From positions 14,570 through 78,569 of the forward strand of contig CAZBVG010000002.1 in NCBI GenBank assembly GCA_964495425.1: a stretch of 64,000 nt of DNA. The letters run 5' to 3'. This DNA comes from an uncultured Candidatus Saccharibacteria bacterium. Its GTDB lineage: Bacteria > Patescibacteriota > Minisyncoccia > Phycocordibacterales > UBA6065. The translations under genes and the position numbers were made by a program. How positions within the stretch are numbered: the first letter of the stretch is position 1; each line of letters starts with the position of its first letter. Positions 8,007-22,146 of this stretch are shown here, piece by piece. Below the pieces are notes generated by a model. That model ran no database searches. It worked only from the letters and a program-made list of their open reading frames with translations, and had not been told where the DNA came from.

Positions 8007-8784
8007 TGTAACTGGCAGAAAGTCTCGAACGAGAACGGTCGGCATACTAGCCGGCCTTGTCGGGTTATTTGCTGTACATTTTTTCTTTCCAACTTTTTTC
8101 CCAACAATTCTGTATCCTGTCACGTCTGTATTTTGGAAGTCTGAGTCATCATCAGTCGGTTTTTTTGTTCGAATGGTAAAGATTGTTCAGTCTAAGTACA
8201 GTCTCGTAAAAGAAAATCGACGCCTCTCAGATGAAATTGCATCTCGTGATGCTTCTATGTTGCTGCTCGATACCTTGCGCTCTGAAAATGAGGAACTAAA
8301 AAAGAACGTAGGCAGGACGGGGCAGGGCAAAGATGTGTTGGGTGTGATTTTATCTCGTCCACCAATATCACCCTATGACACACTTGTAATTGATATTGGT
8401 TCAAGTGATGGTGTTGCAGTAGGCAATAAAGTGTATACATCGGGTGACACACTCGTCGGTGATGTGGTGGAAGTATATGAGCATTCATCAAAAATAAGTT
8501 TGTTCTCGACACCAGGAAGAGAGATTCCAATTTTAGTCGGTTCTTCAACGGTGGCTACACAAGCAATTGGTAAAGGAGGTGGAAATTTTTCCGCACAATT
8601 ACCCGCTGATGTTCGTATCAATAAAGGGGATACAATCATCACAACCCAGATTCGCCCTCATGCTTTTGGTGTTGTCCAAGAAATTCTCATAGATTCATCC
8701 GATTCTCTCCAGACAATCCTTTTCAAAGCGCCTATCAATATTCATGAATTTAGATTTGTTCAAGTAGATATATCAGCAAAATAA
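7972..8784 (+). CDS. mreC: rod shape-determining protein MreC
   Basis: N-terminal TM helix, a coiled-coil segment (ENRRLSDEIASRD...ENEELKKN) and a C-terminal beta domain; positioned between mreB and mreD. Confidence 0.75.
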   Translation: MQTKMTYLKRSNVTGRKSRTRTVGILAGLVGLFAVHFFFPTFFPTILYPVTSVFWKSESSSVGFFVRMVKIVQSKYSLVKENRRLSDEIASRDASMLLLDTLRSENEELKKNVGRTGQGKDVLGVILSRPPISPYDTLVIDIGSSDGVAVGNKVYTSGDTLVGDVVEVYEHSSKISLFSTPGREIPILVGSSTVATQAIGKGGGNFSAQLPADVRINKGDTIITTQIRPHAFGVVQEILIDSSDSLQTILFKAPINIHEFRFVQVDISAK

Positions 8785-13605: not shown

Positions 13606-14493
13606 ATGCACGAATCAGTACTTTTACATGAATCCCTTGATGCTCTTGAGCTTAAAGCTGGAGAGACTCTTGTGGACGGGACGCTTGGTCGCGCGGGACA
13701 TAGTCTCGAGGCGGTAAGGCGAGTTCCAACAATATTTGTAGTAGGCATCGATAAGGATGAAGATGCGCTTACGGAATCAAAAGTAAAACTTGAGACCGCT
13801 GGTGCACATTTCAAACTTTTCAAAGGAAATTTCGATGGTATCGAAACATTTCTTCGTGAAGCGGGTAAAGATAAGGCCGATAAGATCATTCTTGATCTCG
13901 GAGTTTCATCGCCGCATCTCGATTCATCTGGTAGAGGATTTTCATTTAGGAATGACGAGCCTCTCATGATGACTATGGAAAAGAATCCTGGCGAAGATGC
14001 TTTCACAGCTCGAGACATCGTAAATAATTGGGCTGAGGAAGATATCGCGAATGTTATTTATGCCTACGGTGAAGAGCGCTATGCGCGACGAATCGCTCGA
14101 AAAATTGTCGAGGAGAGGGAGAACTCTTCGATAGAAACAACGTTCGATCTCGTTCGTGTCATTGAGAGTGCAGTTCCTGGAATGTATAAGCACGGCAAGA
14201 TACATCCAGCAACTCGCACCTTTCAGGCGTTGCGAATCGCGGTTAATGACGAATTGGGTAGTTTACGCCGAGGACTTTCAAGATCACTCGATGTATTGAG
14301 TCCTGGTGGACGATTAGCGGTCATTTCATTCCACAGTCTTGAGGATCGCATCGTGAAAATGGCGATGAAGGACTGGGAAAAGGATGGTTTCGGACAAACA
14401 TTTACAAAAAAACCAATAGAGCCAAGTGAAGAGGAGATTGCACGAAATCCTCGATCTCGAAGCTCGAAATTGAGAGTTTTCATAAAAAATTAA
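13606..14493 (+). CDS. rsmH: 16S rRNA (cytosine1402-N4)-methyltransferase RsmH (MraW)
   Basis: HESVLLHESLDAL...DGTLGRAGHS start and FHSLEDRIVK motif. Confidence 0.9.
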   Translation: MHESVLLHESLDALELKAGETLVDGTLGRAGHSLEAVRRVPTIFVVGIDKDEDALTESKVKLETAGAHFKLFKGNFDGIETFLREAGKDKADKIILDLGVSSPHLDSSGRGFSFRNDEPLMMTMEKNPGEDAFTARDIVNNWAEEDIANVIYAYGEERYARRIARKIVEERENSSIETTFDLVRVIESAVPGMYKHGKIHPATRTFQALRIAVNDELGSLRRGLSRSLDVLSPGGRLAVISFHSLEDRIVKMAMKDWEKDGFGQTFTKKPIEPSEEEIARNPRSRSSKLRVFIKN

Positions 14494-14867: not shown

Positions 14868-16583
14868 ATGAATGTTTTACGACCCGGAAGGATAACGCTT
14901 TTAGGAATACTTATCTGCTCATTTGCCATGGTGCTGGTGGGTAGGCTTTATTATATTCAGGTAATCAAAAATGAGGCCTATTTAAATCAGGCTGATAGAC
15001 AGTATATAAAGAAAGGCAACGCTCTCTATGATCGAGGATCAATTTCATGGAGTCTCAAAGACGGCACTCCTGTTTCAGCAGCGACACTTAAAACAGGTTA
15101 TACGATAACGGTTGAACCTAAAAAAATTGAATATCCCGAGGATGTGATTAATGCTCTCTCGGGTATTTTGCCTTTCGATGAAGATAAATTACTTACAACA
15201 GTTGAAGATAAAGAAGATTCGTACTCAGAAATAGGTAAGAGGGTGGATGAAGAAACCGCTCAACGAATCGGCGCCTTAAATTTGAAAGGTGTTGGTGAGG
15301 TAAAAGAGCGATGGCGAGTGTATCCGAGCGGAAAGATGGGAGCGAATATACTTGGATTTACTGGATTTGCGGAAGACGGAAAAACGGTGAGTGGTCGATA
15401 TGGTTTGGAGCGGTATTACAATGATGTCCTCTCACGTGAATCATCTGAACTGTACGTGAATTTCTTTGCTCAGGTGTTCTCTGGGTTAAATGAAGCGCTT
15501 TTCGCGAGTGAAAACACCGAGGGAAATATTGTGACGACTATTGAGCCATCAGTGCAAGCCGAACTTGAAAAGAAGCTTGGGTCAGTTGTTTCTTCTTGGA
15601 ATTCAGATCTTACCGGCGGTATTGTCATGGATCCGAATACGGGTGAAATCTATGCTATGGCCTTAAATCCTACATACGACCCGAATGATTTTTCTAAGGA
15701 AAAAAATGCGAACGTGTACGGAAACGCTCTTGTGGATCGTGTATATGAAATGGGATCGATCGTGAAGCCATTAACTATGGCATCAGGTATTGATGCAGGT
15801 GTTGTTACGCCAACAACACGATACAACGATCAAGGATTCGTGATTGTAAATGGTGCAAAAGTATCAAACTTTGATGGGCGAGGTAGAGGTGACGTGAGTA
15901 TGCAGACGGTGCTCAACGATTCATTGAACACAGGTGTGGCTTTTGTTACTCAGAAGCTTGGGAATGAAGCACTTTCAGATTATTTTTTATCACTCGGGTT
16001 TGGTGAGGAGACAGGCATCGATCTTCCTGGAGAGGTGCATGGGCTTGTAAATAACCTCAAGAGTCCGCGAGATATTGAACATGTGACCGCTTCATTCGGC
16101 CAAGGAATCGCACTTACACCTATTGAAATGATTCGTGCCTTGTCAGCGCTTGGAAATGGCGGGTATCTTCCAAATCCTCACTTGGTAAAAAGAATCGATT
16201 ATGCGGATGGTAGTTCAAAAGATTTAACATACGATGAGCGTGAACAAGTTTTTAAACCCGAGACCTCAGAGCAAATTACGAGAATGCTGGTTAAGGTGGT
16301 TGATGAGGCGCTTTTGAAGGGAACGGTCAAATTACCGCACTACTCGGTAGCGGCAAAAACGGGTACAGCACAGATGGCAAAAGAAGGGGGTGGGGGATAT
16401 TATGATGACAGATATTTACACTCATTCTTTGGATATTTCCCTGCGTACAAGCCACGATTCATCATTTTCCTCTTTACTGTTTATCCAAAAGGTGCAGAAT
16501 ATGCATCACACACTCTGACACAGCCGTTCATAGATCTTGTTAAGTTCCTGATTAATTATTACGAAGTACCGCCAGACAGATAA
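14868..16583 (+). CDS. ftsI: penicillin-binding protein, class B transpeptidase (FtsI-like, divisome)
   Basis: N-terminal TM helix, SIVKP (SxxK), SLN (SxN) and KTGTA motifs; sits in dcw cluster order. Confidence 0.8.
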   Translation: MNVLRPGRITLLGILICSFAMVLVGRLYYIQVIKNEAYLNQADRQYIKKGNALYDRGSISWSLKDGTPVSAATLKTGYTITVEPKKIEYPEDVINALSGILPFDEDKLLTTVEDKEDSYSEIGKRVDEETAQRIGALNLKGVGEVKERWRVYPSGKMGANILGFTGFAEDGKTVSGRYGLERYYNDVLSRESSELYVNFFAQVFSGLNEALFASENTEGNIVTTIEPSVQAELEKKLGSVVSSWNSDLTGGIVMDPNTGEIYAMALNPTYDPNDFSKEKNANVYGNALVDRVYEMGSIVKPLTMASGIDAGVVTPTTRYNDQGFVIVNGAKVSNFDGRGRGDVSMQTVLNDSLNTGVAFVTQKLGNEALSDYFLSLGFGEETGIDLPGEVHGLVNNLKSPRDIEHVTASFGQGIALTPIEMIRALSALGNGGYLPNPHLVKRIDYADGSSKDLTYDEREQVFKPETSEQITRMLVKVVDEALLKGTVKLPHYSVAAKTGTAQMAKEGGGGYYDDRYLHSFFGYFPAYKPRFIIFLFTVYPKGAEYASHTLTQPFIDLVKFLINYYEVPPDR

Positions 16584-16584
16584 C

Positions 16585-17880
16585 ATGAAATCACTTTTTA
16601 AAAAAATTGTAGTTTACAAACTAACGTGGGCCGCGCGACTTGCTCTGTGGCGACATAAGCCGAAGGTTATCGCTATTACCGGAAATGTTGGTAAGACTTC
16701 AACAAAGGATGCAGTCTACGCGCTTGTCTCACAAGCTTTCAATACTCGAAAAAGTGAAAAAAGTTTTAACAGTGAACTTGGTCTACCGCTCGCAATCTTG
16801 GGGCTTGATAACGCGTGGTCATCATTTGGCGGTTGGGTAGAAAACATAGCGATCGGCTTTTGGAGGGCGCTTTTTGCAAAGAATTTTCCAGAATATTTGG
16901 TACTTGAGGTTGGTGCTGATCATCCTGGTGACATTGAGAAGGTTACCAAGTGGCTTCATCCTGATATTGTTGTTTTGACTCGAATGTCAGATACACCGGT
17001 GCATGTGGAGTACTTTAATAGTGCTGCAGATGTACTAAGGGAGAAGATGTTTTTAGCACATGCGCTCAAAATGGGCGGGACATTGATAGTTAATAGTGAT
17101 GACCCTCACTTTGTTAATGCGGTCAGAGATATAAATGCCAAGAAAGCTTTTTATGGCACAACACGGGGAAGTACTGTCGAAATAGAAGAAATGACAGTTT
17201 CATATATTGGCTCAACACTGCCTTTGCCGAAAGGTCAGCGAGCCACGCTCTCAGTAGGAGGAACAAAAAAGCACATAGAAATATACGGGATCCTTGGTGG
17301 TCATTTGGTGTATCCAGTCGCAGCTGCGTGCGCTGTTGGAGTTGTGCTCGGAATTATTGAGTACATAGACAAAGCCTTTACAAATTTCCATACACCAAAG
17401 GGACGTATGAGGATTTTAAAAGGCATTTCGAGTATTGGCATCATTGATGATACGTACAACGCATCTCCCCTTGCAACCATGGAGGCTCTCAAGGCTCTTG
17501 CTGGTGTATCAATTCGAGGTCGTAAAATTGCCGTGTTGGCTGATATGAAAGAACTTGGTGATAAAGCACAACAGGCCCATATGGAAGTAGGATTGTTCGC
17601 GGGTGAGGTGCTTCATATGCTTGCTACCGTAGGGGATATGGCACAGTATATCGGCGAAGGAGCAAAGCGAGCGGGTCTTCCTATGGACCGTATTATGCAT
17701 TTCAATTCATCAGAGGAAGCAGGAAAAGCTATGGTTGACATTGTTCGTGCAGGAGATGTGGTGCTCGTGAAAGGATCACAATCGATGCGCATGGAGCGAG
17801 TTGTGAAGCAGCTTTTGGAAGATAAATTTAAGGCGGGAGATCTACTGGTGCGTCAGGAGGATGAGTGGCAGAAAAGATAA
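16585..17880 (+). CDS. murF: UDP-N-acetylmuramoyl-tripeptide--D-alanyl-D-alanine ligase (MurF, lacks the N-terminal domain)
   Basis: IAITGNVGKTSTKDA P-loop, DDTYNASP motif and C-terminal VLVKGSQSMRMERVV. Confidence 0.8.
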   Translation: MKSLFKKIVVYKLTWAARLALWRHKPKVIAITGNVGKTSTKDAVYALVSQAFNTRKSEKSFNSELGLPLAILGLDNAWSSFGGWVENIAIGFWRALFAKNFPEYLVLEVGADHPGDIEKVTKWLHPDIVVLTRMSDTPVHVEYFNSAADVLREKMFLAHALKMGGTLIVNSDDPHFVNAVRDINAKKAFYGTTRGSTVEIEEMTVSYIGSTLPLPKGQRATLSVGGTKKHIEIYGILGGHLVYPVAAACAVGVVLGIIEYIDKAFTNFHTPKGRMRILKGISSIGIIDDTYNASPLATMEALKALAGVSIRGRKIAVLADMKELGDKAQQAHMEVGLFAGEVLHMLATVGDMAQYIGEGAKRAGLPMDRIMHFNSSEEAGKAMVDIVRAGDVVLVKGSQSMRMERVVKQLLEDKFKAGDLLVRQEDEWQKR

Positions 17881-18302
17881 TTCAAAAGTGCTACACTGAT
17901 GGCATGATGAATTCATACAATTGGTATTCACAATTACTTAAACCGACCTGGGCCCCTCCATCGTGGCTTTTTGGACCGGTTTGGACATTTTTATACATTC
18001 TTATCACTATTTCTTTCGGTAAGGTGTTTATTATGCTTTTCCAAAAGCAGATTCCGTTTGCTGTTGCTTTGCCATTCATTCTGAATCTTATCTTTAACTT
18101 TGCCTTTACTCCATTACAGTTTGGCCTCAAGAACAATTTATTGGCAGCGGCGGATGTTCTCCTTGTGCTTGTAACGCTTATATGGGCAATGAGTGCGATA
18201 TATCCTTATGCGCGTTGGATTACGTATATGCAAATTCCGTACGTCCTCTGGGTATCATTCGCTACAGTCTTGCAACTTACAATTACATATCTCAATAGAT
18301 AA
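17865..18302 (+). CDS. tspO: TspO/MBR family tryptophan-rich sensory protein
   Basis: LLKPTWAPPSWLFGPVWTFLYILI signature and five predicted TM helices. Confidence 0.7.
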   Translation: MAEKIIQKCYTDGMMNSYNWYSQLLKPTWAPPSWLFGPVWTFLYILITISFGKVFIMLFQKQIPFAVALPFILNLIFNFAFTPLQFGLKNNLLAAADVLLVLVTLIWAMSAIYPYARWITYMQIPYVLWVSFATVLQLTITYLNR

Positions 18303-18304
18303 TT

Positions 18305-18757
18305 ATGGAAAAGGATCTGTATGATTTTGTGGGATTATTCATACTCATGGCGGGTTTTGTAATAGGTCTTGGTGCAGTTACGGTAATTGATCTTCATGGT
18401 TTTTTGGGTAGAAAATCTCCGTATTGGACGGAAGCAACCATTCGTACACATAAAGTCACTAAGCCTCTGATTTGGGTTGGAATGTTTCTAGTGATTGTGG
18501 GTGGTGCGATAACGTACCGTGGTATGCCGATTGAGGGACTTGTTTTGTTACAGACGCTTTCTGTACCTATCATGATATTGAACGGCATCTTTTTGTCTTT
18601 TATCGTGAGTCCATTTTTACTTAAGCAAGAAAAGGAAGGTAGATCGCAGGAACTGCTTCCACCGAGTCTTCAAATAAAAATCACCATAAGTTTTATGGTT
18701 TCGTTTGTAAGTTGGTGGGGAAATCTAGCTATAGTGCTCTGGATGCTCATCAGGTAG
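18305..18757 (+). CDS. hypothetical polytopic membrane protein
   Basis: 150 aa with four hydrophobic segments. Confidence 0.45.
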   Translation: MEKDLYDFVGLFILMAGFVIGLGAVTVIDLHGFLGRKSPYWTEATIRTHKVTKPLIWVGMFLVIVGGAITYRGMPIEGLVLLQTLSVPIMILNGIFLSFIVSPFLLKQEKEGRSQELLPPSLQIKITISFMVSFVSWWGNLAIVLWMLIR

Positions 18758-18853
18758 GCGAGTGTAGCAAGGCGTACCAAAAGATATTGCAAATTTAAAG
18801 CCATCTGCTACTCTTGCCCCAGAATACCTCAAACAATACAACCTGCTGAAATC

Positions 18854-19195
18854 ATGAGCCTTGCACAGCTTCCTAATCCTGTCATTGCCGCCCGAGTCCT
18901 GCTCGACAGCTTCAGGGAAATGAAAGATGAAGAGTATGAGAAAGCGTTGGGCGACACCCTACGTAGGGGCGAGATTTTCGCCGCTTCGTACGACGCCGAG
19001 TTTTCCGCATCGCTCAGTGAGGCGGATGCCGCCCGTTACGGGGCGTTCCGCCAGCCTTTCTTAAATGCGTTCGATAGCCTGAAGAAGGTCTCCGACTGTA
19101 GACGGCTCTCCATGGCATACCTCGCGCAAACCATCGCATGGTGGCAGTTGGTGAGTGCGTTTCGTACTCTTTATGGGAAACCCTTGCCTGAGTAA
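18854..19195 (+). CDS. hypothetical protein (GC-rich islet)
   Basis: 113-aa ORF in a segment of visibly higher GC than its neighbours. Confidence 0.35.
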   Translation: MSLAQLPNPVIAARVLLDSFREMKDEEYEKALGDTLRRGEIFAASYDAEFSASLSEADAARYGAFRQPFLNAFDSLKKVSDCRRLSMAYLAQTIAWWQLVSAFRTLYGKPLPE

Positions 19196-19255
19196 TGTTT
19201 GACTGCTCAAGCTCAAATCGTGCCTTTAGTAGGTGCGATTTTTTTATGGGCTAAA

Positions 19256-19300
19256 GTTATACTTGTGTGACCCTGGTGGGACGGGATTGGAATCTGCTGT
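19256..19300. repeat. degenerate copy of the tRNA-Glu 3' end plus flank (integration scar R1)
   Basis: TATACTTGTGTGACCC...GATTGGAATC matches the R2 copy at the same offsets. Confidence 0.5.
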
Positions 19301-19399
19301 ATAAAGCCTTCAGATCATTTCGAGAAATCATTTGCATTTAAGTCATTTCCCAGTACTATGCAAATAGACACTAAACCAAGCAAAAGGAAAGATCTTTAG

Positions 19400-19825
19400 A
19401 TGCCTAAATATACAACTATTCGAGCGATAAACCTGAGCACAGGTCTGCCATTTACTTTTGATGTATCCCAAGAAGATTTGGATCTATTTGAGGGTCAAAA
19501 ACGAGCGGCAAAGGACCGCACATCACTGTTTCTGTTCAGTGAAGAAGAGGCCATATCTTATTTTGAATTCTGTTTGTTCCCAGCGTATCATGAGGTCAGG
19601 AAAATCTTTCTCGAAAACGGCCTGACTACTGAATTGCTTATCCAAATTCTTCGAGAGTTTGGGGTAGAGGACCAGACGTTCATCCAAAAATTACTAGAGG
19701 ATTCTGATTATATCTCCAGCATACAAGGCTGGTTCACAGGAATCGCGGGCGAGGGTGTAAGAGCCTCTCGGACCCCTGGGTATCGTCTACGAAGCAACTC
19801 GCCGTTTTTACACGGAGAAAATTAG
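19400..19825 (+). CDS. hypothetical protein (between scar repeats R1 and R2)
   Basis: 141-aa ORF. Confidence 0.4.
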   Translation: MPKYTTIRAINLSTGLPFTFDVSQEDLDLFEGQKRAAKDRTSLFLFSEEEAISYFEFCLFPAYHEVRKIFLENGLTTELLIQILREFGVEDQTFIQKLLEDSDYISSIQGWFTGIAGEGVRASRTPGYRLRSNSPFLHGEN

Positions 19826-19879
19826 CAATCTTCCCCTGCATCCCGATCTACTTTGATCGGGTTTTTTTATTCAGTTTCC

Positions 19880-19925
19880 AACCTATACCCTTTGTGACCC
19901 ACATTATACGAGATTGGAATCAATT
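19880..19925. repeat. copy of the tRNA-Glu 3' end plus downstream flank (integration scar R2)
   Basis: ACCTATACCCTTTGTGACCC here versus TCCTATACCTTTGTGACCC at 21046-21068. Confidence 0.6.
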
Positions 19926-19965
19926 ATATAGAAGTCTACAGGTAATAGTTAATTTAAAACTTTAA

Positions 19966-20553
19966 TTAGTACCAAGCCTCCTTTATGTCACAAGTTTCAA
20001 TTCTACCATCTATATAACAGCCAATCTGTAGTAATGAGTCCTTTTGATGAATAGGAAGTAAAAGAAATTCTATATCGCTGTTTTCACAACCATAATCCAC
20101 CCTCATGTTTGCGATTCCAGTTGTCGCACCAGTAAGAAACCTACATTCTGCGTTCTTGCTGAATAATTTAATGAACCACGGCCGTTTTTCATCATGAGAA
20201 GACGCTGAAAAATTTAGCTTCTTATCTAGGGGATCGATTTTATAATAATTATTATTTTTATATGGATTTAAAGGACAAATTAAAATATCTGGATCTGTAA
20301 AATATCTGAAACAAGGATCTTCAATTCCTTTTGTTGTTTTGCACCTAAAAGCGTCACCTCTGTTTGTGGAGAGGCTATTTACCCAGCAACTGGCTGTATC
20401 CAAATTAGTTGTTATCTCACTCTCCGAACCAACAAAATAAAAGGATAGTGTTTCTTTTTTAAAATCAGTTAATTTGGTATACGAAAAGACAATTAGTGGT
20501 ATTAGTAGAGTCCCAATAATCCAACGATGATTTTTAATTAAATATTTTTTCAC
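19966..20553 (-). CDS. hypothetical secreted or membrane-anchored cysteine-rich protein
   Basis: N-terminal TM/signal anchor WIIGTLLIPLIVFSY and about 10 Cys; lies between R2 and the tRNA. Confidence 0.45.
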   Translation of the reverse strand: MKKYLIKNHRWIIGTLLIPLIVFSYTKLTDFKKETLSFYFVGSESEITTNLDTASCWVNSLSTNRGDAFRCKTTKGIEDPCFRYFTDPDILICPLNPYKNNNYYKIDPLDKKLNFSASSHDEKRPWFIKLFSKNAECRFLTGATTGIANMRVDYGCENSDIEFLLLPIHQKDSLLQIGCYIDGRIETCDIKEAWY

Positions 20554-20608
20554 AATAATTTTAAGTCTTTATGGCGACTGTTATTCCAATGTAGAATTTA
20601 TTGTTATA

Positions 20609-21049
20609 TCAAATCCAATCATTTGCTATAGACATACCGGCAACAAACGTAAGTACAAGTGATAAGAGGAGAATTGCTCCCCCGGCAGATAAAGTAAATA
20701 ATCTATATCTCTTTCCTTTGTAAAACTTAAAAATTAGAAATCCAAAGTAGGCGGTTAAAATTATCAAAACTGAACTCGAAGCAATTATACTTAGTGTGTC
20801 GTAAAAGGCCGAACCTATCACAGAAATGAAAATTGGGGTGCCAATAGCATACCCAATCTCATATGAATTGTACTGAGGCCTTATATCTTTTCCTTTTATT
20901 AGTAGATATCCATAAATAAGAAAAAGGATTAAAAGAATAATTGTTAGAGGAAAGAGGTATGAAAATACTCCTATAGCTTGCGAGAAATGGAAAAAGATTC
21001 CGCTGGTAAATTGGCCTAACATATTAAATATAATAACACTTGTTTTCAA
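20609..21049 (-). CDS. hypothetical 4-TM membrane protein
   Basis: 146 aa, strongly hydrophobic. Confidence 0.45.
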   Translation of the reverse strand: MKTSVIIFNMLGQFTSGIFFHFSQAIGVFSYLFPLTIILLILFLIYGYLLIKGKDIRPQYNSYEIGYAIGTPIFISVIGSAFYDTLSIIASSSVLIILTAYFGFLIFKFYKGKRYRLFTLSAGGAILLLSLVLTFVAGMSIANDWI

Positions 21050-21062
21050 TCCTATACCTTTG

Positions 21063-21134
21063 TGACCCTACGGGGAATCGAACCCCGATTTAAAGCTTGA
21101 GAAGCTTCTGTCCTAACCATTAGACGATAGGGCC
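21063..21134 (-). tRNA. tRNA-Glu(CTC)
   Basis: Reverse complement GGCCCTATCGTCTAATGGTTAGGACAGAAGCTTCTCAAGCTTTAAATCGGGGTTCGATTCCCCGTAGGGTCA folds as a 72-nt cloverleaf: 7-bp acceptor stem, GGTTCGATTCC T-arm, anticodon loop TTCTCAA. CCA is not encoded. Confidence 0.85.
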
Positions 21135-21746: not shown

Positions 21747-21813
21747 TGGGTTTTCCTAATCTAATAGTAGGTTAAGTATAGCAAAGATAAGGAAGAGAAA
21801 AGGGAACGAAAGA

Positions 21814-21838
21814 GGCCGGATCGCTTCGCGATCCGGCC
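21814..21838. terminator. GC hairpin, terminator-like
   Basis: GGCCGGATCgcttcgcGATCCGGCC perfect 9-bp stem. Confidence 0.6.
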
Positions 21839-21876
21839 GTTTCTCTACCTATGAAGGTAGAAGGTTTGTTTTGGGC

Positions 21877-22146
21877 CTAGGCGGCTTCATGTGACTCAAG
21901 TGCAGCGTGTGAAGCTGCAGCATGAGACCAATGACGGGGTTTGCCGCTTCGGTAGTTGTTCGGTTTCTGGTCGAACGCCTGCTGTGCCAAGCTGGCAAGC
22001 ACAGTTGCGTTACCAAAAAACCGATTACTCTTGGTAATGACGAGTGAGGTGGCCATTGCCGAACTGACATGTTCCTCACGCATCACACGAACTACCTCCG
22101 TCACCAACTTCTGGTCGATGACTTCCTCAGGCGGTGGAGTGTTCAT
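21877..22146 (-). CDS. hypothetical protein (GC-rich islet)
   Basis: 89-aa ORF with GC well above local background. Confidence 0.35.
   Translation of the reverse strand: MNTPPPEEVIDQKLVTEVVRVMREEHVSSAMATSLVITKSNRFFGNATVLASLAQQAFDQKPNNYRSGKPRHWSHAAASHAALESHEAA

Follow-up and report, generated by a model that had tools for sequence, protein, structure and literature searches.

Repeats beside a tRNA-Glu gene that resemble serine-recombinase attachment sites in an uncultured Saccharibacteria genome

Results and Discussion

Copies of the tRNA-Glu 3' end

The window analyzed here is a 64,000-nucleotide stretch of contig CAZBVG010000002.1 from an uncultured Candidatus Saccharibacteria bacterium, and it contains a minus-strand tRNA-Glu(CTC) gene whose 3' end and trailer (together C0) are followed by two further partial copies, R2 and the more distant R1. 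These repeats are real and specific to the locus. We consider it fairly probable, at roughly 60%, that R1, R2, and C0 are attachment-type sites of elements that carried large serine recombinases (LSRs) and used the tRNA-Glu 3' terminus as their bacterial attachment site (attB). They would then be genome scars of an ordinary kind, in an unusual form and in a little-studied bacterial group. The sites are listed below, with a slash at the center of each dyad.

21062-21134, minus strand: tRNA-Glu(CTC) gene (ARAGORN; Rfam tRNA, 64.8 bits)
21045-21082: C0, attB-like dyad of 38 bp, TTCAATCCTATACCTTTGT/GACCCTACGGGGAATCGAA, centered on the last tRNA nucleotides
19876-19919, plus strand: R2, hybrid-type site of 44 bp with 6-bp arms, TTCCAACCTATACCCTTTGT/GACCCACATTATACGAGATTGGAA
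19256-19292, plus strand: R1, a more decayed site, TATACTTGTGT/GACCCTGGTGGGACGGGATTGGAA

ARAGORN and Rfam put the gene at 21062/21063-21134, and together with the alignments they bear out an earlier note on this DNA, which had described a minus-strand tRNA-Glu(CTC) with two additional copies of its 3' end. Read on the plus strand, C0 is GTTTTCAATCCTATACCTTTGTGACCC (21042-21068). The copy at R2 (GTTTCCAACCTATACCCTTTGTGACCC, 19874-19900) differs from it by one mismatch and two one-base indels, while the copy at R1 (TATACTTGTGTGACCCT, 19256-19273) matches it without gaps at 15/17 positions. Only the last 6-7 nt of the tRNA, TGACCC(T), are included in the repeats, and the remaining shared sequence is mostly trailer. 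R1 and R2 also have ACGRGATTGGAATC in common at the same distance from GACCC, just as previously noted, and their homology covers ~60 nt (19256-19313 vs 19883-19941), extending to ~19327 in R1 and ~19947 in R2. The repeat units measure 44-65 nt, compared with ~20 nt in the earlier note, and all three sites lie in direct orientation.

The significance of the repeats was assessed by Smith-Waterman local alignment against 300 dinucleotide shuffles, with C0 aligned to the 3.2-kb interval. The C0-R2 score of 37 was reached by none of the 300 shuffles (19.0 +/- 2.1, maximum 29), nor was the R1-R2 score of 28 (19.8 +/- 2.1, maximum 27), so both pairs passed the formal alignment that had been proposed as a check. 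By itself, the C0-R1 pair is marginal (score 24, reached in 10/300 of the shuffles used for C0-R2), and R1 is consequently joined to the set mainly via R2. This marginal pair is what a chance resemblance would have in its favor, but the other two pairs exceed every shuffle, and L094, the closest relative (L-numbers are labels of homologous loci fetched from relatives), has kept both R1 and R2, in sequence as well as location, making chance an exceedingly improbable source of the repeats. Exact TTTGTGACCC occurs in the window only at R2 and C0, and exact ACGRGATTGGAATC only at R1 and R2. A hidden Markov model built from the R units matched these sites and, weakly, C0; a dispersed repeat family was ruled out, as there are no further copies in the window.

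Half-site geometry

Half-site positions were counted from the G of GACCC, which is 21064 in the window tRNA. The integrase of Listeria innocua recognizes an outer 9-bp motif located at positions 11-19 of its attB half-sites and 16-24 of its attP (phage attachment site) half-sites (Rutherford et al., PMC3783163), and this spacing has been proposed for other LSRs as well (PMC3783163). A corresponding arrangement is found at the tRNA-Glu locus. All tRNA copies have GGAATCGAA (or GGAGTCGAA or AGAATCGAA) at 11-19, whereas (G/A/T)GATT(G/C)(G/A)AA is found at 16-24 in R1 and R2 of the window, in the L094 homologue of R2, and in the distal sites of the L008 and L104 islands described below, which matches the published 5-bp shift between attB and attP (PMC3783163). 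Both this B/P motif shift and the imperfect dyad of ~38-50 bp are features of LSR sites. The resemblance to the sites of the Listeria innocua and A118-family integrases has its limits: the motif here is a different one, no cognate enzyme is encoded in the window, the trailer-side halves match the scheme imperfectly, and the central dinucleotide is a putative assignment.

In C0, the 3' 19 nt of tRNA-Glu form a B-type half-site, and the left 21 nt of the dyad plus TGACCC make up the copy that is repeated at R2. Its outer arms are TTCAATCC and GGAATCGAA, with the outer motif at 11-19 on the right and at 12-20 on the left (GGATTGAAA, as the reverse complement, outward from the center). The left half of R2 is homologous to the left half of C0, while its right half is P-type, with AGATTGGAA at 16-24. 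R1 has lost its left arm and likewise has a P-type right half (GGATTGGAA at 16-24). C0 and R2 share the trailer-side half and the crossover region, as would be expected if the ends of related elements are involved, and R1 and R2 share the P half, a pattern that fits tandem accretion. The R2 homologue of L094 (6476-6520, 45 bp) has perfect 12-bp inverted arms, and its right half is 90% identical to R1 over 31 nt.

L108 contains three near-identical sites of the R type, TTTGT/GACCCTnCGGGGATGGAATTGGAAC, with ATTGGAA at 18-24. Compared with the tRNA, their five extra bases are placed between the equivalents of the T-stem and T-loop, while those of R1 are placed between the equivalents of the acceptor and T-stem. 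Because the position of the outer motif is constant despite the different insertion place, a spacing constraint seems to be at work rather than mere common descent. Each of the three sites (14381-14417, 15541-15574, and 16052-16083) comes after one gene (237, 292, and 125 aa, respectively), in the latter two cases with a terminator preceding the site, and a fourth R-type site (8468-8495) lies behind a homologue of the window's 141-aa gene discussed below. The L108 sites have the appearance of a cassette-like array, with no tRNA within its 16 kb.

Judged from their layout, the repeat units look like serine-integrase sites of 38-45 bp with B- and P-type half-sites, not simple 20-bp tyrosine cores. 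Direct repeats at tRNA 3' ends most often go back to integration by tyrosine recombinases, and the direct-repeat layout would also be compatible with heavily decayed scars of classical tRNA-targeting elements of that class, which have an identical core inside the 3' part of the tRNA. However, identity within the tRNA amounts to just 6-7 nt, against a core of ~15 nt or more for such elements, the shared sequence is mostly trailer, and neither the window nor the tested island ORFs of relatives encode a tyrosine integrase (Phage_integrase type). We therefore regard this origin as very unlikely.

Serine recombinases and a variable interval in relatives

LSR genes, often truncated or interrupted, lie directly downstream of tRNA-Glu and convergent with it in five relatives (L008, L028, L066, L104, and L107), where their last codons enter the GTGACC junction of the tRNA 3' end or of its copy in an RNA element, termed E, that is described further below. 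All of the recombinases found among the tested island ORFs were of the serine type.

L066, 4278-5225: LSR (PF07508, 4.9e-9; phrog_95 'integrase', 1.5e-22)
L008, 7144-7870: LSR (phrog_95, 2e-16; homologues with PF00239 Resolvase, PF07508 Recombinase, and PF13408 Zn_ribbon_recom)
L104, 6294-7840: LSR reading into the tRNA-Glu junction
L107, 774-2394: LSR reading into the tRNA-Glu junction
L028, 566-1921: LSR reading into the tRNA-Glu junction
L006, 7199-7858: LSR fragment, 1.7 kb downstream of the tRNA

The clearest case is L104, in which a 7.7-kb island includes a FokI-like nuclease, a small resolvase, and the LSR. Its distal boundary is TTTTTGT/GACCCTAACGATACATGATTCAAAA, also read as TTTTTGT/GACCCTAACGATACATGATTCAAAACCC, and its proximal boundary is TTTTGT/GACCTTAC continuing into the tRNA, or CGTTTTGT/GACCTTACTGGGAGTCGAACCC with the latter half being the tRNA. 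The distal site of L008 is nearly identical to that of L104 and is situated right behind the MurF stop codon. At their distal ends, both islands have sites of the same build as R1 and R2. From these sequences, there looks to be an LSR family in Parcubacteria that is specialized on the tRNA terminus. Scans of IMG/VR for attP with R-type patterns returned only chance-level matches inside unrelated viral sequence, and scans with two LSR fragments returned no matches.

The tRNA-Glu gene is embedded in a conserved frame, MraZ-RsmH-FtsL-PBP-MurF ... tRNA-Glu ... YqeY-RmuC-L21. In all, 7 public contigs carry the identical locus. The window belongs to a Parcubacteria/Paceibacteria (CPR, candidate phyla radiation) genome, and its MurF is 62-63% identical to those of a Taylorbacteria and a Parcubacteria metagenome-assembled genome. 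The interval from MurF to the tRNA-Glu 3' end was different in every relative examined, and no homologue of any of the window's six interval genes occurs in the 80 loci that were retrieved with RmuC. Its contents in relatives include the following.

L004: copper-resistance cluster
L041: type I restriction-modification genes and RhuM
L008: kinase-like gene
L061: decarboxylase and aminotransferase genes
L070: ice-binding-like protein
L019, L033, L006, L016, L047, L059: nearly empty (39-375 nt)

This comparison supports the tRNA-Glu 3' flank as a recombination hot spot. In some relatives, tRNA-Glu directly follows MurF on the same strand (L109, 3534-3662; L107, 2367-2607; also L006, L016, L047, and L059), while in genomes of the window type it has the opposite orientation, and the variable zone (17880-21134 in the window) lies between the two genes; the differing orientation implies an inversion at the hot spot.

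A possible history of the locus

In the history that we favor, the 38-bp dyad at the tRNA end would serve as attB for elements carrying an LSR, and each integration would leave a hybrid site at the far end of the element, whose tRNA-facing half is the element's own P half-site. Such a P half would resemble the tRNA 3' end, except that the outer recognition motif is placed 5 bp further out. R2 and R1 would be two distal sites of this kind in direct orientation, left by at least two rounds of integration and accretion at the tRNA, with successive integrations pushing earlier junctions outward. The integrase and most other element genes would have been lost later, leaving integrase-less mini-segments between attachment-type sites: an old module around the 141-aa gene (B141) between R1 and R2, and, from R2 to the tRNA, a younger segment that is AT-rich and holds two genes. 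By the same reasoning, LSRs would have acted in this lineage, the events at tRNA-Glu would have followed this order, and C0 may still be a usable attB. The earlier note had likewise suggested successive integrations at the tRNA 3' end; the variable hot spot, the LSRs, and the R-like distal sites in relatives speak for this part of the proposal, which is thereby supported in part and made more specific, with serine-type sites, one young strain-specific segment, and one old conserved module.

Several points weigh against this history. The site center was picked from symmetry, and the motif was defined after the sites had been seen. There is no LSR gene or remnant in the window (tblastn, E-value at most 1; Pfam), nor is there a recombinase of any other kind, which extends to the full 64 kb the previous remark that no integrase lies between the repeats. 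At the tRNA-proximal junction C0, a canonical attL (B half plus P' half) was not found; its trailer-side half at 12-20 has B-type rather than P'-type spacing, and in the LSR-bearing relatives the integrase 3' end lies there instead. A clean P'/B' scheme for the trailer-side halves failed, as their outer motifs are located at 12-21, between both expected positions. The spacing of C0 is suggestive of an unoccupied attB, not of a canonical attL. Furthermore, no precise empty-site allele was found at close distance, the nearest genomes being at most 82% identical at the nucleotide level. Three additional objections, from the E element and from B141 in L108 and in more distant relatives, are taken up in the next two sections.

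The E element and duplicated tRNA ends

In a number of relatives, tRNA-Glu and a hairpin are followed on the same strand by E, an element of 110-180 nt.

L008 7874-7985, L004 17023-17143, L096 6547-6651, L095 7208-7308, L012 2269-2400, minus strand: E
L010, L041, L042, L069: E also present
L036 962-1052, minus strand: E after tRNA-Lys, ending in the tRNA-Lys 3' sequence

The 5' module of E is the reverse complement of the 3' end and trailer of its own genome's tRNA, interrupted by an inserted hairpin or 5-6 nt at the same place as the R1 insertion, and its 3' end is a copy of the last 12-22 nt of the tRNA; both ends co-vary with the neighboring tRNA. The core consists of GACGGAG, a hairpin, GAGTCGGGGTCGCG, a hairpin with a CAGCAG loop, and GTGACC. 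E is predicted to fold into a closed multi-helix structure, with the tRNA-sense strand being the more stable in 9/9 cases. In an alignment of 10 core sequences, 18 of the 21 predicted pairs have compensatory changes, and one G-U pair is present in 9/10. E has no match in Rfam and is, by prediction, an undescribed tRNA-like structured RNA. The window itself does not contain E. Since the LSR remnant of L008 adjoins the 3' copy within E and not the tRNA itself, E seems to offer a second attB half-site.

The structure of E raises the question of whether R1 and R2 could be decayed duplicated tRNA 3' ends or pieces of E, which arose through inversion or through unequal or illegitimate recombination instead of the action of an integrase, with the genes between them turning over by ordinary indels. 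Relatives' E does contain tRNA-end modules with an insertion placed as in R1, and the right half of the R sites resembles the E 5' module of L008 (CCCTGGTGGG is common to R1 and this module), which is also the first of the objections deferred above. In addition, partial tRNA-Glu fragments surround the gene in L004, L070, and L104, and the genes to the left of R1 vary among relatives too, without recognizable boundary sites. On the other hand, the conserved E core is absent from R1 and R2, with nhmmer finding nothing in the window at an E-value below 10, and the orientation of R1 and R2 to the tRNA is opposite to that of E. The same type of site also forms the distal boundary of the LSR islands of L104 and L008, and the position of the outer motif is kept when the 5-nt insertion sits elsewhere, as in L108. 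Taken together, we consider an origin of R1 and R2 from duplicated ends or E unlikely.

The partial tRNA-Glu fragments mentioned above are 5' halves located just upstream of the intact tRNA-Glu (L004, 17299-17447; L070, 8432-8560; L104, 7930-8010), and they are either fused to an E-like core or interrupted by a hairpin.

A related proposal retains serine recombination and interprets the repeats as working parts rather than relics. Patescibacteria would then have a gene-capture system anchored at tRNA-Glu, with integrases supplied in trans and with E, as a duplicate of the attB half-site, acting as a second landing pad or decoy; single-gene units would be stacked serially at the attB of the tRNA end, each of them bringing a terminator and a P-type half-site. 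L108 has three near-identical sites after single genes, and the window and L094 have two sites each. This proposal is conceivable but doubtful.

The B141 module between R1 and R2

19320-19873, plus strand: B141 module, consisting of a promoter region, ORF (19400-19825), and terminator (19842-19861 and T-run)

The segment between R1 and R2 consists of a single conserved module. Blastn aligned 19320/19330-19869/19873 with L095 and L096 (70-71%) and 19373-19919 with L094 (82%), such that the ends of the conserved block fall just inside R1 and R2. The 141-aa protein has 16 homologue clusters with 49-85% identity, and the gene faces the tRNA-Glu 3' end in five genomes, the relatives being L094, L095, L096, and L109; the tRNA-B141 pair of L109 has the opposite orientation with respect to MurF. 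This distribution indicates that B141 is not recent cargo. It would be either the oldest accreted unit, long since fixed, or a gene of the host on the margin of the hot spot. The second deferred objection arises in L108, where the B141 homologue (50% protein identity) resides at another locus, has no tRNA within 8 kb, and is nonetheless followed by an R-type site, so that R2 could belong to the B141 module itself. The third concerns L095, L096, and L109, in which R1 and R2 are not recognizable even though B141 lies beside tRNA-Glu; the intergenic DNA is not alignable at this distance, which bears on their absence. The earlier note had named the same ORFs at this locus without repeats as the finding that would speak against it, and for the R1-R2 segment these three genomes formally present exactly that.

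These observations bring up another explanation, namely that the R units are functional host sequences of the B141 module or its neighbors, such as a protein-binding or RNA element by bidirectional terminators, whose likeness to the tRNA end would be part of that function. Directly before R1 and R2 lie the intrinsic terminators (19215-19241 and 19842-19861, respectively) of plus-strand genes, the perfect inverted arms in L094 are unexpected for a decaying relic, and the site in L108 stands behind the terminator of the B141 homologue despite the different locus. However, no R sites follow the B141 homologues of L095, L096, and L109, while R sites do follow unrelated genes in L108 and MurF in L008, and the R units match no Rfam family. 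A host function of this kind is accordingly improbable. R1 and R2 were also rejected as sigma-70 promoters, since the hexamer spacings do not fit and promoter-like matches are at shuffle level. The region's best sigma-70-like match (TTAACT-18-TATAAT, 10/12; minus strand, 19923-19952) is inside the conserved right arm of R2 and is directed at the B141 terminator, with the match total of the region again at shuffle level.

Compared with 15 homologues of ~151 aa, the window's 141-aa ORF has a frameshift near codon 124 that replaces the last 27 codons, and its +1 frame reads LGIVYEATRRFYTEKISNLPLHPDLL up to a stop codon, as the homologues do. The same truncated protein is encoded on 7 public contigs, and the frameshift is therefore probably a real mutation. 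The N-terminus of the family is invariant (MPxYTT..NLSTG.PFTFE; P0005-P0021). An AlphaFold model of B141 is confident (pLDDT 87.6, pTM 0.83) and comprises two strands and seven helices, with no structural neighbor in PDB or BFVD. One source labels a single family member as a MerR regulator, a label that could not be supported.

Segment A between R2 and the tRNA

19948-21044: segment A, AT-rich strain-specific insert (GC 0.324 vs 0.42-0.43 in the flanks)
19966-20553, minus strand: ORF A195 (8 Cys; hydrophobic stretch at the N-terminus)
20609-21049, minus strand: ORF A146, small membrane protein with 3-4 hydrophobic segments (137 aa if the start is the ATG at 21022)

Segment A has no tblastn match in any fetched relative. 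In L109, the terminator of the B141 homologue runs straight into GTTGT/GACCC of tRNA-Glu, in L096 the B141 terminator is followed by E and then the tRNA, and in L094 and L095 other small genes lie between B141 and the tRNA. The absence of segment A from relatives combined with the layouts of L109 and L096 points to a lineage-specific insertion between B141 and the tRNA, bounded by R2 and C0. The interiors of the two segments are unrelated (627 bp for R1-R2 vs 1168 bp for R2-C0, with different genes), and neither contains integration or transfer genes by Pfam, PHROGs, or LSR tblastn. The cargo consists of small ORFs, as first described: a 141-aa protein, a Cys-rich 195-aa protein, and a 146-aa protein with hydrophobic segments. 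The accompanying suggestion that both segments are decayed or satellite-like cargo suits segment A, with its 32% GC and its absence from relatives, and does not suit B141 as recent cargo, since this gene is an old resident or a long-fixed element.

An A195-type protein might be the effector of a conflict system. In the public database, A195 homologues form only 3 clusters beyond its own, with 41-43% identity, on short contigs and in unrelated contexts. Two of the homologue loci (L088, 549-1863; L089, 1051-3002) have the gene directly downstream of, and overlapping, a DUF2326 or weak HATPase_c gene.

Comparison with known systems and significance

The staphylococcal cassette chromosome (SCC) and pseudo-SCC islands are integrated by Ccr large serine recombinases, with attB at the 3' end of rlmH/orfX. 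Like them, the tRNA-Glu locus would combine a serine recombinase acting at the 3' end of a conserved gene with a tandem pile-up that includes recombinase-less elements. Accretion followed by decay has been described for these composite islands too. Unlike them, the tRNA-Glu locus has a tRNA as the target, a CPR bacterium as the host, units of only 0.6-1.2 kb with 1-2 genes, and no recombinase left in the window. In E. coli tyrT/rtT, tandem duplications are homologous over the whole unit and include ~19 nt of the tRNA each; both loci have the tRNA 3' end repeated behind the tRNA gene, whereas the interiors here are unrelated and 6-7 nt of the tRNA are repeated. Integron cassette arrays and clusters of attC sites lacking integron-integrases (CALINs) share with L108 the serial one-gene units with a partly palindromic site and no nearby integrase. 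They differ in that the present locus has no IntI tyrosine recombinase, no attC structure, a mixed gene orientation, and a tRNA anchor. An integron-like array was ruled out for these reasons (no IntI, mixed orientation) and because B141 comes with a terminator and a conserved upstream region of its own.

For integrative and conjugative or mobilizable elements (ICEs and IMEs), a series of integration, decay to an integrase-less cis-mobilizable element (CIME) flanked by attachment sites, and adjacent new integration has been described (Pavlovic 2004, Bellanger 2011, reviewed in PMC5704250). The same three steps would apply here, given that the direct repeats take in the target's 3' end and that the segments are devoid of integration and transfer genes. 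Documented CIMEs, however, mostly involve tyrosine integrases with long identical cores, as opposed to the serine-type geometry and the 6-7 nt within the target at tRNA-Glu.

CPR bacteria have tiny genomes, and how they gain genes is little understood. If our interpretation is true, a single tRNA-Glu gene would be a main gateway through which Parcubacteria receive foreign DNA, with copper resistance, restriction-modification, nucleases, and small membrane or secreted proteins found at this spot in relatives, and it would be served by LSRs instead of tyrosine integrases, the enzymes that tRNA genes usually attract. The recovered B half of the tRNA and the several P halves would then be attB and attP candidates for a new serine integrase family, and serine integrases are of practical interest as genome-engineering tools. 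The window's own result is modest, consisting of decayed remnants without an integrase.

Flanking ORFs

18854-19195, plus strand: ORF G113 (113 aa), 55% GC vs a background of 42-43%, just outside R1
19215-19241/19248, plus strand: predicted intrinsic terminator of G113, directly upstream of R1

The GC-rich ORF that had been pointed out beyond R1 is indeed distinct in composition, and GC around it is 0.51 vs 0.42-0.43 elsewhere. G113 was present in no fetched relative, and no boundary site was recognized to its left; an older acquisition may have left it as a remnant. Neither Pfam nor PHROGs matched the 113-, 141-, 195-, or 146-aa ORFs, and tblastn of the four against 50,697 phage genomes returned no match. 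An Rfam scan of the window locus matched only the tRNA. The G113 family is small, with ~110-aa proteins in 30 representative clusters. A second short GC-rich patch (0.53) is found at 21800-22100, where an 89-aa minus-strand ORF lies between tRNA-Glu and YqeY and is weakly conserved in L095 and L019.

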